64,000 nt of DNA from an uncultured beta proteobacterium. Its GTDB lineage: Bacteria > Pseudomonadota > Gammaproteobacteria > Burkholderiales > SG8-39. The stretch lies in assembly GCA_903928055.1 (NCBI GenBank), contig CAIYPG010000056.1, positions 3,917-67,916 of the forward strand, given 5' to 3'. A model generated the notes under the pieces. That model had not been told where the DNA came from and did no database searches. It saw only the letters and a list, made by a program, of their open reading frames with translations. The translations under genes and the position numbers were made by a program. Positions 40,756-46,665 of this stretch are shown in pieces. Positions within the stretch are counted from its first letter, which is position 1. Each line of letters opens with the position of its first letter.

Positions 40756-41436
40756 TCAGATCACGACAGTTGCGGAACGCAGCGCCGCCATCGGCGCCGT
40801 CCAGCCCACAATGGCCCCCTGTGCCCGGATCATTTCAATCGCGGCACGCTTGAATTCCGGAAAGTAACTTTCGGTGGCATCCTCGATCAGCAGGCATTCG
40901 TAGCCGCGGTCATTGGCCTCACGCATGGTCGTCTGCACGCAGACCTCGGTGGTGACGCCGGCGAACAGCAGGTGGGTAATGCCTTTCAGGCGAAGGATTT
41001 CACCCAGGCTGGTCGCATAGAACGCTCCTTTGCCAGGCTTGACGATCACGATCTCACCCGGCGTGGGCGCAAGGGCAGCGACGATGTCGTTGCCGGGCTC
41101 GCCATCAATGAGTATCCGCCCCATCGGCCCCTCATCGCCGATGCGCAGTTTCGGGTTGCCACGCAGGCGCTTGGCTTCCGGGCAATCGGCCAGGTCGGCA
41201 CGATGCGCCTCGCGGGTATGCACCACCAGCACGCCATTCGCCCGGCACCAGTCCAGCAGCGCACGCACCGTCGGCACAATGGCGGCCAGCAGCGAGACAT
41301 CATTGCCCAGCGTCTCGCCGAAGCCGCCGGGCTCGACAAAATCGCGCTGCATGTCGATGACAATCAGCGCCGTCTTCGCAGGATCGAAGGTGTAGGCAAA
41401 CGGCGTGGCAGCAACGTTGATCATGTGGATTTCCAT
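40756..41436 (-). CDS. isochorismatase-like cysteine hydrolase (paralogue A)
   Basis: Catalytic D-K-C elements: [32 protein letters not shown]. Start at 41436 or 41424. Confidence 0.85.
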
Positions 41437-41463
41437 TCAGTAATGAACGGGGCCGGATTCAAA

Positions 41464-41507
41464 CCCACCCCTGACCCTCCCCCGTCACCGGGGGAGGGTA
41501 GGGTGGG
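41464..41507. repeat. REP-like G/C-tract imperfect palindrome (cccacccctgaccctccccc-gtcacc-gggggagggtagggtggg)
   Basis: Seen directly in the 150-bp gap between the ABC ATPase and hydrolase A. Confidence 0.6.
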
Positions 41508-41586
41508 AGAGCCCGCCTCTTCCCCTCCACATGCCCAGCAACCGCCGGCGGTTTCGCGCCATGCGGTCATGATTGAGGCCCCCGCT

Positions 41587-43176
41587 TCATGCGGCAACCG
41601 CGCCTGCGGCCGCGTGTCCGGCCATGCACGGCCCGATCACGGCGATGTCGGCCGCCGAGGTAATCGTTTCGTGCACGATGCGCCCGTCGAAAATCACCAC
41701 CATGCGGTCGGACAGTTCCAGCAGCTCATCCAGATCCTCTGATACAAGCAGCACCGCCGCACCCGCATTGCGCGCAGCGAGAATGCGATCATGGATTTCC
41801 GCGACTGCGGCGAAATCGAGGCCGAACACCGGATTGGCAACGACGAGCACCGACACTTTTTCAGACAGTTCACGCGCCAGCACGGCGCGCTGCACATTGC
41901 CGCCGGACAGGGTGCCGATCGGTGCACCTGCCCCCTGGGTCTTGACCTTGAATTCCCCGATCCAGCGGTCCGCCTGCTCGACCATCGCGCCACGCTTCAA
42001 CCAGATGCCCGATGCCAGCGGCGCCTGGTCGAAATTGCGAAAGGCCATGTTCTCCGCCACGCTCATGCCAGGCACACAGGCGTTGCGCAACGGCTCCTCG
42101 GGCAGGCTGAAGGCGCGGTAATGATGGATTTCACCACGTGTCGCACCGTAAGGCTTGCCATCAATGCGGATATCGCCGCCGGACGGGCGGCGCTGGCCGA
42201 TCAGCGCCTCGACCAGTTCGCGCTGGCCGTTGCCGGAAACACCGGCAATGCCAACGATCTCTCCCGGACGGATATCGAGCGTGAAGTGCTCCACGGCGGG
42301 CCTGCCGGCAGCATTGTCCACCACGAGATTGCTGATGGACAGGCGCGGCTGGTCTGCACCGGCGCCAGCCAGTTTGCTCCCATGGGCTTGCGGGATCTCG
42401 CGCGAACCCACCATCATCTCGGCCATCTTTGTCGGATTGAGGTCGGCCACCCTGCCTTCGCCCGCATACTTGCCCCGGCGCAACACCGACACCGCGTCGG
42501 CGAACGCCATGACTTCCCGGAACTTGTGCGTGATCATCAGCACCGTCACCTTGCTGGCGCGGGTCAGGTCGCGCACCATGCCCAGCACCTCGTCGGCTTC
42601 CGTGGGGGTAAGCACCGAGGTCGGTTCATCAAGGATCATGAACCGGCGCCGCAGGTAGAGCTGCTTGAGGATTTCCACCTTCTGCTTCTCGCCCGCCGCC
42701 AGGCGCGACACCGGCTTGTCCAGCGGCACCTTGAAAGGCACCGTGTCCATGAAGGCCGCGAGACGCTGCATTTCGTCCTTCCACTTCACCACCGCCGGAA
42801 CGTCGTCGCGCGACATCACCAGATTCTCAGCCACGGTCATGCTGGGGACCAGCGTGAAGTGCTGATACACCATGCCGATGCCGAGCGAGTGCGAATCATG
42901 TGGTGAACGGATGGCGTACTCACGGCCATCCACCTGGATTTCGCCCTCGTCCGGCTGGTAGAAGCCCACCAGGCATTTCACCAGCGTGCTCTTGCCCGCG
43001 CCGTTATCGCCCAGCAGCGCATGGAAGGAGCCTGCTGCGACCTTCATCGACACATTGTCCAAAGCGGCAAAGGAACCGAAGCGCTTGGTCATGCCGGTGA
43101 CTTCAATGCCGAGGGCATGCCCCGGATCTACCGCGTGGTCGGGCTTGAGACGCATCATTGAGGACTCTTCAGCCAT
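41587..43176 (-). CDS. ABC transporter ATP-binding protein, duplicated ATPase
   Basis: GDNGAGKST and GVSGNGQRELV Walker A sites; 529 aa. Start shares one nucleotide with the hydrolase B stop (TGATG). Confidence 0.9.
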   Translation of the reverse strand: MAEESSMMRLKPDHAVDPGHALGIEVTGMTKRFGSFAALDNVSMKVAAGSFHALLGDNGAGKSTLVKCLVGFYQPDEGEIQVDGREYAIRSPHDSHSLGIGMVYQHFTLVPSMTVAENLVMSRDDVPAVVKWKDEMQRLAAFMDTVPFKVPLDKPVSRLAAGEKQKVEILKQLYLRRRFMILDEPTSVLTPTEADEVLGMVRDLTRASKVTVLMITHKFREVMAFADAVSVLRRGKYAGEGRVADLNPTKMAEMMVGSREIPQAHGSKLAGAGADQPRLSISNLVVDNAAGRPAVEHFTLDIRPGEIVGIAGVSGNGQRELVEALIGQRRPSGGDIRIDGKPYGATRGEIHHYRAFSLPEEPLRNACVPGMSVAENMAFRNFDQAPLASGIWLKRGAMVEQADRWIGEFKVKTQGAGAPIGTLSGGNVQRAVLARELSEKVSVLVVANPVFGLDFAAVAEIHDRILAARNAGAAVLLVSEDLDELLELSDRMVVIFDGRIVHETITSAADIAVIGPCMAGHAAAGAVAA

Positions 43177-44840: not shown

Positions 44841-44859
44841 GCCTGATCCTTCAGGTTCT

Positions 44860-45918
44860 TCACGCAGGAATCTCCCGGGACTTGAACAGTTTGATGCGCC
44901 CGTACAGGGTTTCGCTGGCAAGCACGAGCAGGAAAGCCATGCCCTGCAGCACCAGCACGGTGGCATCGGGCAGGTCAAGGCGGCGCTGCAGCATGCCGCC
45001 GCTGGCCGAAATTCCACCAAGCAGAACGGCGACGGGAATGATGGCAATCGGGTTCTGGCGCGCAATGAATGCAACCAGGATGCCGGCGTAGCCGTAGCCG
45101 GCCATCAGCGAGGCGTTGGCGTTGCCATGCACCGCCGCAACTTCCACCATTCCTGCGAGGCCCGAGGCTGCGCCTCCAAGGAAGCAGGCAGTCAGCACCA
45201 ACTGGCTCACCGGCAACCCGGCCAGGCGCGCTGCGCGGGCATTGCCCCCGACGATGCGCAGCCCGAAGCCCCAGGTGGTGTGCTTTACCAGGACGTACAT
45301 GGCGACGCAGAAGATGATGCCGAAGCCCAGCCCCCAGTGCACGTCCAGGCCGGGAAAATTGCCCAGCATGTTGGCATCGCCGATGGGATGGGTGGAGGGC
45401 TTGTTCAGGCTGGCCGGATCACGCAGCGGGCCCTCGACCATGTGGTTGAACAGGGCGATCGCAATATAGGTGAGCAACAAACTGGAGATGGTTTCATTGA
45501 TGCCGCGATACTGGCGGAGCGCCCCTGCCGCGGCGATCCACAGTCCGCCGGCAAGCATTCCGCCCAGGGCCATTGCAACCTTCACGCCCATGGGCGACAC
45601 GCCCGTCATCAGATGGCCGATCACCGCAGCAACCAGCCCGCCCAGCACCAGCGCACCCTCGCTGCCAATGATCATCAGGCCTGCCTGGGCCGGCAGGGCC
45701 ACGCACAACGCCGTGAGGATCAGCGGTGCCGCGCGCGACAGCGTGTTCTGCCAGGAAAACGCACCGGAGAACCCGCCCTGGTAGATCAGGCTGTAGACCT
45801 CGATTGGGCTTTGCCCCAGCACCAGCATGAACAGGCCGAACAGCACCATCGCCCCTGCCAGCGCCCCGATGGGGATGGCAAGGGCTTCAAGCGCGGCGCT
45901 GACCCTGGGAGAAGCCAT
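44860..45918 (-). CDS. ABC transporter permease
   Basis: Polytopic; ..MIIGSEGALVLGG.. motif; 352 aa. Confidence 0.85.
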   Translation of the reverse strand: MASPRVSAALEALAIPIGALAGAMVLFGLFMLVLGQSPIEVYSLIYQGGFSGAFSWQNTLSRAAPLILTALCVALPAQAGLMIIGSEGALVLGGLVAAVIGHLMTGVSPMGVKVAMALGGMLAGGLWIAAAGALRQYRGINETISSLLLTYIAIALFNHMVEGPLRDPASLNKPSTHPIGDANMLGNFPGLDVHWGLGFGIIFCVAMYVLVKHTTWGFGLRIVGGNARAARLAGLPVSQLVLTACFLGGAASGLAGMVEVAAVHGNANASLMAGYGYAGILVAFIARQNPIAIIPVAVLLGGISASGGMLQRRLDLPDATVLVLQGMAFLLVLASETLYGRIKLFKSREIPA

Positions 45919-45942
45919 GATGGACTCCCGTCAAAAACCTGA

Positions 45943-46665
45943 TCAGACCTTGCCGATCACGCCTTCGACGAGGTAGTTCATCGATTCGAGAACCGGATCG
46001 GTCTGGATCAGGGCCTTGCCGGCGGGGATGACTTCCTTGCCGGTATTGTCCTTGAGCGGCCCCTTGAAGATGACATAGTCGCCCTTCACCATCGCTGCCT
46101 TGGTGGCATCGGCCTTTTTCTTTGCCGCATCGGAAACAGCCTTGCCGTAAGGCGACATCTTGACAAAGCCTTCCTTGAAACCACCGCGCACGAAATTCTT
46201 GAAAGGCGCGCCCGACAGCGCGTCCTTGACGTGCTGCTCATAGACGGGCGCCCAGTTCCACTCTGCACCGGTGAGATAACCCTTCGGTGCCAGGGGAGCC
46301 TGACTGGCGTGATAACCGCAGGAAAAGATGCCGCGCTTCTCGGCCGTCTCGACGACGACCTTGGGACTGTCGACGTGGCAGGTGATGACATCCACGCCCT
46401 GGTCCACCATGCTGTTGACCGCCTCGGCCTCTTTCACCGGCAGCGACCAGTCGCCGGTCACGATCAACTGGCAGGTGATTTTGGGATCAACACTGCGCGC
46501 GCCCATCAGGAAGGCGTTGCAATTGCGCAGCACCTGCGGAATGGGCTTGGCGGCGATGAAGCCGATTTTCTTGGTCTTGCTGGTGAAGCCGGCGACGATG
46601 CCGTTCAGGTACTGGGCCAACTTGCACGATAAAAATGGCAGCAAAGTTGATTTGCTCGATATCAT
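45943..46665 (-). pseudogene. 5'-truncated BMP-family substrate-binding protein gene (lacks signal peptide and about 135 N-terminal residues)
   Basis: Homology to the full-length SBP at 27755 starts at AQYLNGIVAGF..IPQVLRNCNAF (matching EPAYLAGIIAG..IPEVVRNINAY, about residue 138). The first 15 codons (MISSKSTLLPFLSCK) come from AT-rich unrelated DNA. Confidence 0.7.

Follow-up and report, generated by a model that had tools for sequence, protein, structure and literature searches.

A 64,000-nucleotide stretch of contig CAIYPG010000056.1 (the window, here meaning the whole stretch analyzed) carries on its minus strand, around positions 40,756 to 46,665, the genes of an ATP-binding cassette (ABC) importer of the BMP type together with two isochorismatase-like cysteine hydrolases, A and B. 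The region is very likely a copy of the known triuret/biuret catabolic operon that has been damaged by a 4,154-bp deletion in a freshwater Burkholderiales population. Hydrolases A and B are orthologs of triuret hydrolase (TrtA) and biuret hydrolase (BiuH), respectively, and only part of the gene for the substrate-binding protein (SBP) of the importer is left. The intact allele is represented by L081, a 45-kb lake-type metagenome scaffold and one of the 16 contigs that encode the 222-amino-acid (aa) form of hydrolase A (P0001) as an exact protein match. The features of the locus are as follows.

40756..41424, minus strand: hydrolase A gene (trtA, triuret hydrolase ortholog), 222 aa in public gene calls, or 226 aa from an alternative ATG at 41436
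41437-41586, within the minus-strand operon: 150-nt spacer between the ATPase gene and trtA
41464..41507, minus strand: GC-rich hairpin within that spacer, with a 19-bp stem and a GUGA loop
41587..43176, minus strand: tandem-domain ABC ATPase of the importer, 529 aa, with two ABC_tran stretches (Pfam)
43176..43910, minus strand: biuH (hydrolase B), predicted biuret amidohydrolase, 244 aa, between permease 2 and the ATPase
43920..44840, minus strand: permease 2, 306 aa, BPD_transp_2 (131.6 bits), start taken from the gene call on L081
44860..45918, minus strand: permease 1, 352 aa, BPD_transp_2 (100.7 bits), order conserved in related loci
45943..46618, minus strand: remnant of a BMP/PnrA-like SBP gene, A150-V373 of a 373-aa protein; the open frame continues to a chance ATG at 46665
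46618..46619, no strand: deletion junction, at which 4,154 bp of the intact allele (L081 653-4806) are gone

The gene order, the stop/start overlap, and the Asp-Lys-Cys motifs described in a sequence-only reading of this stretch were all borne out by the open reading frames (ORFs), Pfam matches, and translations. The biuH stop codon and the ATG of the ATPase gene share one base in GCCTGATGGCT, and this translational coupling of biuH to the ATPase gene is a conserved operon feature. IDMQxDF, KPGKG, and T[DE]VCV motifs and an HTRExHRxDLxD segment are common to the translations of hydrolases A and B. The two BPD_transp_2 permeases and the tandem-domain ATPase that an importer of this kind needs are present at the same lengths as in the intact allele; the best NCBIfam matches of the ATPase were BMP/CUT2-type ATPases, all under cutoff. 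The operon leaves no room for an extra gene, such as trtB. No exact match was found for the 226-aa form of hydrolase A because the public gene calls start four codons later.

Two hydrolases orthologous to TrtA and BiuH

Hydrolase A is an ortholog of TrtA and is predicted to share its activity. Its best solved relative is the Herbaspirillum sp. BH-1 enzyme (PDB: 6XIX, 6XJ4), to which it aligns without gaps over 218 residues with 329 bits and 68% identity. The TrtA catalytic triad (D24/K129/C162), the ligand residues (E72/K132/Q202), and six positions that discriminate TrtA from BiuH (F35/Y, N41/Y, A134/S, E160/D, Y187/T, and I205/V) were defined previously, and mutation of substrate or discriminant residues destroys triuret activity (PMC7948467). 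The entire triad is present in hydrolase A, the triuret-contacting E72, K132, and Q202 are identical, and the predicted protein has the same residues at the V157-T158 pair, which forms a cis-peptide in TrtA. The TrtA residue is found at all six discriminant positions (F35, N41, A134, E160, Y187, and I205). Among 54 syntenic proteins in the A position, F35, N41, E160, and Y187 are invariant, with A134 in 52 and I205 in 53, and the characterized TrtA is itself 92% identical to the A-position gene of H. huttiense. Hydrolase A fails the NCBIfam BiuH equivalog model NF050097 (256.1 bits against a cutoff of 370), as expected for TrtA. As its hallmark, TrtA hydrolyzes triuret and discriminates about 10^4-fold against biuret.

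Hydrolase B is the biuret hydrolase BiuH (EC 3.5.1.84), with its activity predicted from sequence. It passes NF050097 with 414.7 bits and matches BiuH from R. leguminosarum bv. viciae 3841 (PDB: 6AZO, 5BK6, 6AZQ) with 397 bits (6AZO) and 72% identity. The catalytic and ligand residues are conserved (D36, F41, K142, K145, C175, and Q215), and all six discriminant positions hold the BiuH consensus Y, Y, S, D, T, and V. The first five are invariant in 67 syntenic B-position proteins, and V is present in 66; the characterized BiuH and the gene in the B position of a Pararhizobium share 92% identity. The Rhizobium biuH differs in its setting, being plasmid-borne with the cyanuric acid hydrolase gene atzD (PMC6219798), whereas the window yielded no atzD-like gene.

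The active-site comparison therefore matched A to TrtA and B to BiuH at six of six residues each. Because both proteins are direct orthologs of characterized enzymes, the substrate class of the two hydrolases is not an open question. The two "cysteine hydrolases" should be annotated as TrtA and BiuH, and the operon should be recognized as the published triuret/biuret cluster. The sequence-only reading had proposed an uptake-plus-hydrolysis module for nitrogen-rich ureides, which was right in kind, and it even named BiuH and TrtA among possible relatives, but it did not recognize the orthology to these two enzymes.

The published cluster and its recurrence across genomes

That trtA and biuH are associated with an ABC cassette is known from earlier work. 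Several hundred genome contexts in which trtA co-occurs with biuH have been reported (PMC7948467), and for Herbaspirillum and Rhizobium the legend to Supplementary Figure 1 of that paper (Tassoulas, Elias & Wackett 2021) names, as the surroundings of trtA, trtB, atzD, atzF, a GntR regulator, and an "ABC transporter cassette." In ammonia oxidizers and comammox Nitrospira, atzF-biuH-trtA-trtB is collocated with "bmpA-nupABC" (mSystems 2025, PMC12625717). The earlier suggestion that such an arrangement had not been described for BMP-type transporters fails because trtA/biuH and the cassette appear together in both of these papers. Apart from being a damaged copy of a known system, the window locus is ordinary.

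The trtA-biuH-atzF cluster of Herbaspirillum sp. BH-1 was represented by an H. huttiense locus (L015), in which atzF is followed by an NMT1-type ABC system, then by the BMP operon that includes biuH and trtA, and finally by a GntR/FCD regulator. It shares with the window the core order of BMP SBP, two permeases, biuH, ATPase, and trtA, as well as identical TrtA active-site and discriminant residues, and the intact allele L081 has an orthologous GntR/FCD regulator. It differs in having atzF and the second, NMT1/SsuA-type ABC system upstream and the GntR gene downstream of trtA; in the window, no atzF was found, the regulator, which was upstream and divergent, is now deleted, and the SBP is truncated. 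The second ABC system of H. huttiense (L015 6741-9465, plus strand) consists of an NMT1/SsuA-like SBP, a BPD_transp_1 permease, and an ATPase, and the characterized cluster therefore has two different transporters, since this system lies between atzF and the BMP operon. The contigs of ammonia oxidizers and comammox Nitrospira likewise have a BMP-type ABC transporter collocated with trtA and biuH. They differ from the window in that atzF is present, trtB is present in the ammonia-oxidizing bacteria, and the transporter is annotated as a nucleoside importer (PMC12625717), whereas in the window no atzF was found, no trtB was recognized, and the transporter is broken.

Representative genomes were scanned with the SBP fragment, which gave more than 518 relatives; the best 80 loci were analyzed, and 66 of these had enough downstream sequence to be informative. 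The placement of a hydrolase gene inside the ABC operon recurs: BiuH lies between permease and ATPase in 64/66 informative loci, and the full order SBP-permease-permease-BiuH-ATPase-TrtA is present in 51. In 13 loci, biuH is embedded and trtA is elsewhere or absent, and the remaining two have another arrangement. The syntenic loci span Alpha-, Beta-, and Gammaproteobacteria, including Mesorhizobium, Methylobacterium, Herbaspirillum, Caballeronia, Variovorax, and Alcanivorax. Without exception, the position before the ATPase is occupied by a BiuH-type protein and the position after it by a TrtA-type protein. Of the 80 loci, 52 have atzF within 10 kb, and 15 have an ortholog of the GntR regulator that is deleted in the window.

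Many operons of this type in Alphaproteobacteria have an additional gene between permease 2 and biuH for a 338-aa carbon-nitrogen hydrolase (PF00795, aliphatic amidase/formamidase-like), as at L025 (12756-13772, plus strand). Gaps of a similar kind are seen at this place in about 20 loci, most of them alphaproteobacterial (e.g., L005, L024, L035, and L079).

The spacer between the ATPase gene and trtA has a folding energy of -84.7 kcal/mol (z-score -3.5), and the corresponding gap is only about 55 nt in the nearest relative (L002). The hairpin in the spacer had been called a REP element. Membership in a real REP family is unsupported, because the hairpin occurs once in the 64-kb window and an exact search of 185,579 representative genomes for its 24-nt core gave just nine scattered, single-copy matches. 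A consensus scan reported no terminator-like site at the hairpin.

A 4,154-bp deletion in the window allele

The SBP fragment aligns only to positions 111-286 of the 301-position Pfam Bmp profile, in line with the truncation noted from the sequence, and its homology to four relatives breaks off abruptly near 46615. Comparison with L081 explains the truncation. Window positions 47270-46619 correspond to L081 1-652 at 100% identity, and positions 46618-30775 correspond to L081 4807-20669 at 99.8% identity; the 4,154 bp between these flanks on L081 are absent from the window. The deleted segment contains two CoA-transferase subunit genes, a rhodanese gene (133 aa), a divergent GntR/FCD regulator gene, the intergenic promoter region, and the 5' part of the SBP gene. 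The regulator is 50-60% identical to that adjoining trtA in Herbaspirillum. The SBP gene has lost its first 148 codons plus two bases, which places the junction inside codon E149, and the junction is blunt, without microhomology.

On L081, the SBP gene is full length (373 aa) with the Tat motif SRRNIIKG. A complete SBP with an export signal is therefore encoded by the intact allele and not by the window. The intact form is ancestral, since its SBP has the Tat signal and since the N-terminal part is conserved in 78/80 orthologous loci. The deletion allele is also real. Three lake-water metagenome runs have contigs that cross the junction with no mismatches, which makes a chimeric junction unlikely, and the gene order is repeated on a 25.6-kb contig of a different assembly, where a 233-aa Bmp gene adjoins a glyoxalase gene. 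Freshwater populations hold both the intact allele and the deletion allele, a small example of the ongoing loss of a nitrogen-scavenging pathway.

The five genes 3' of the remnant (the two permeases, biuH, the ATPase gene, and trtA) are full length and 99.8-100% identical to their counterparts in the intact allele. Import through this system is nevertheless very probably dead in the window allele; we infer loss of SBP function because the signal peptide and one lobe of the protein are gone.

Because GC content falls from about 0.63 to about 0.55 near 46.6 kb, at the deletion junction, and stays low over window positions 46619-64000, insertion of a genomic island was considered as the cause of the truncation. 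This was rejected, as the low-GC flank, which includes glyoxalase and SGL genes, runs on without a break in the intact allele as well; for the same reason, this composition boundary was not made by the deletion.

Another scaffold from the same population (L083) has the SBP and regulator genes intact and lacks 37 nt in permease 2 (about 6317-6321; window 44491-44522), a frameshifting loss that splits the gene into calls of 162 and 134 aa. This is either a second, independent transporter lesion or an assembly error.

Transporter ligand and proposed pathway

The ligand of the importer bears on how the operon is used, and two further groups of window genes are relevant to it.

24085..28837, plus strand: second, intact BMP-type importer (ATPase, two permeases, and a 360-aa SBP), from NCBIfam matches
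29778..40751, no single strand: purine oxidation/deamination genes (Rieske oxygenase, guanine deaminase, PuuD-type urate oxidase, XdhC, XdhB, XdhA, 8-oxoguanine deaminase, and a CDA-fold deaminase)

The closest solved structures to the SBPs of the trtA/biuH operons (trt-type SBPs) are guanine-binding AtzT (PDB: 6PI5; 207 bits) and an adenine-bound Brucella protein (PDB: 3S99). The ligand residues of AtzT include Y45, S97, F98, E165, N169, W194, N218, and N220 (PMC6834077). With these purine-base SBPs, the trt-type proteins share the fold family, the Tat signal, the Tyr45/Trp194 sandwich, and Ser97/Phe98/Asn169: among 78 orthologs, Y45 and S97 are each present in 77, F98 in 76, and N169 and W194 in all. 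They differ from AtzT at E165, N218, and N220, which are replaced by Q, H, and D, respectively, in 78/78 orthologs. Together with the retained Tyr/Trp aromatic sandwich, this altered pocket would fit a planar, N/O-rich ligand other than guanine. The true AtzT-like SBP of the window is that of the second importer (27755-28837), which scores 429.8 bits against AtzT, keeps E165 and N218, and is 36% identical to the trt-type SBP; encoded at the opposite end of the purine cluster, this second system is probably a purine-base importer.

To our knowledge, BMP/PnrA-family ligands comprise only nucleosides, purine bases, and related heterocycles. We tentatively suggest, as a possibility that falls a little short of probable, that the transporter of the trtA/biuH operon may be a dedicated triuret/biuret importer and would give the family its first acyclic ureide ligand, its signature being the invariant Q/H/D pocket and the coupling of biuH inside the transporter genes; in the lake lineage, the proximity of xdh and urate oxidase genes might then reflect urate-derived triuret as the natural substrate. 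What goes beyond the published work here is that the transporter encoded with trtA and biuH across hundreds of genomes has a fixed pocket signature distinct from that of its purine-binding relatives. This signature and the allele variation are modest points, and neither would surprise a specialist.

In the intact system, a Tat-exported, periplasmic BMP-family SBP would capture the substrate, which we infer to be triuret and/or biuret, and the two permeases and the tandem ATPase would import it. Cytoplasmic TrtA would convert triuret to carboxybiuret and ammonia, carboxybiuret would lose CO2, spontaneously or via TrtB, to give biuret, and BiuH would convert biuret to allophanate and ammonia. 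The enzymatic steps from triuret through carboxybiuret and biuret to allophanate are established, and carboxybiuret decarboxylation can be spontaneous (PMC7948467). Nitrogen release would be completed by AtzF, whose gene lies elsewhere in this organism or is missing from it, or by spontaneous decay to urea, with the GntR/FCD regulator controlling the intact cluster.

Some negative results weigh against this reading. A tblastn search of the 64-kb window with Herbaspirillum AtzF (E<=1e-3) returned no allophanate hydrolase homolog, which leaves the pathway incomplete here. No trtB candidate was recognized in the window, where no reference sequence for it was searched. The searchable literature holds no transport or binding experiment on the trt-type SBP family, whose sole published label is "nucleoside transporter." Finally, a consensus scan, which is a weak test, found no sigma-70-like promoter site on the coding strand upstream of the SBP remnant. 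The AtzF result agrees with the sequence-only reading, as does the lack of a cyanuric acid hydrolase: no AtzD, urease, or urea carboxylase family member turned up among the annotated large ORFs of the window.

The purine genes raise the alternative that the transporter imports nucleosides or purine bases and that triuret and biuret arise within the cell from purine or urate oxidation instead of being imported. BMP/PnrA-like systems usually import such compounds, as the label "bmpA-nupABC" implies, and the closest solved SBPs are the guanine- and adenine-bound proteins described above. Just as the sequence-only reading claimed, the annotated neighbors of the operon are purine genes: it is adjoined by those for the CDA-fold deaminase, 8-oxoguanine deaminase, XdhA/B/C, PuuD-type urate oxidase (Urate_ox_N), and guanine deaminase. 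Urate oxidation was also proposed as a natural source of triuret by the authors of the TrtA study (PMC7948467). We nevertheless consider this alternative unlikely. A separate BMP transporter whose SBP resembles AtzT far more (430 versus 207 bits) is already present in the purine cluster, and the trt-type pocket is invariantly altered (E165Q, N218H, and N220D). The genes adjoin here, but this is rare elsewhere; next to the cluster in the 80 related loci, xdh was found in none, urate oxidase in two, and guanine deaminase in two, whereas atzF is common, and conserved adjacency to purine catabolism was rejected on these counts. Downstream of trtA, the DNA is different even in the closest representative (L002). 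The juxtaposition is thus lineage-specific and argues only weakly for a functional link. In addition, Herbaspirillum sp. BH-1, which carries the cluster, came from a potato field that had received biuret as fertilizer (PMC7948467), which suggests an external supply.

A second alternative takes the deletion as rewiring rather than decay: without the GntR repressor and without import, trtA and biuH would be expressed constitutively, and the cytoplasmic enzymes would clear triuret and biuret formed by the neighboring urate oxidation. The loss of the regulator, the intact state of the five downstream genes, and the position of the operon directly beside xdhABC and the PuuD-type urate oxidase gene are all compatible with this idea. 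However, the promoter region was deleted along with the regulator, with no promoter-like site seen upstream in the weak test above, and two permeases and an ATPase would be useless cargo. The alleles are near-identical, so the deletion is recent, and the integrity of the downstream genes therefore says nothing about selection. The frameshifting 37-nt loss in permease 2 of L083 also fits relaxed selection on the system. We judge rewiring to be quite unlikely and retain the reading of a known operon damaged by deletion.

It is highly improbable that the hydrolases act on ureidoacrylate, guanylurea, N-carbamoylsarcosine, or nicotinamide instead of triuret and biuret. In favor of this reading are the functional diversity of the isochorismatase-like superfamily, the lack of a dedicated NCBIfam model for TrtA, and the score of hydrolase A, which lies under the BiuH cutoff. 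Against it, every residue that contacts the substrate and every second-shell discriminant residue is an exact match to TrtA or BiuH, the published TrtA mutations at these residues abolish triuret activity (PMC7948467), and both proteins score far under the cutoffs of other family models (RutB, 110-130 against 378 bits; the nicotinamidase PncA, 40-43 against 174; YcaC, about 29 against 310), with N-carbamoylsarcosine amidase-type models and structures also far lower than those of TrtA and BiuH. The ureidoacrylate amidohydrolase RutB (PDB: 8BKD) shares the isochorismatase-like fold and the Asp-Lys-Cys triad; it differs in giving only 105-112 bits to both hydrolases, far under the equivalog cutoff, and no rut genes lie nearby.

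The xdhA gene of the purine cluster is whole in the window (37133-38854) and in a further scaffold, L082 (503 aa), and is called as two pieces on L081 (208 and 307 aa). L081 has 19 extra nt compared with the window, and the split call in the corresponding part of the scaffold (12781-14311) suggests that this indel lies in xdhA.

Other annotated ORFs of the window encode CoA-transferase, acyl-CoA dehydrogenase, enoyl-CoA hydratase, MmgE/PrpD, and many TctC receptors. The low-GC segment 46619-64000 has genes for glyoxalase-fold and SMP-30/gluconolactonase-like proteins, several TctC receptors, enoyl-CoA hydratases, an ADP-forming acyl-CoA synthetase, an HMG-CoA-lyase-like protein, and MmgE/PrpD. 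TctC (Bug) receptors are dense, together with family III CoA-transferases, in window positions 1-23600 and 47194-62621; there are at least six of them (8971-10002, 10040-11116, 48129-49109, 54576-55547, 55603-56571, and 60140-61123). A high density of these two families is typical of Burkholderiales. The organism is a freshwater member of this order; the nearest representative is a Burkholderiales metagenome-assembled genome with an SBP identity of 95%, and the runs that span the deletion junction are lake-water metagenomes.

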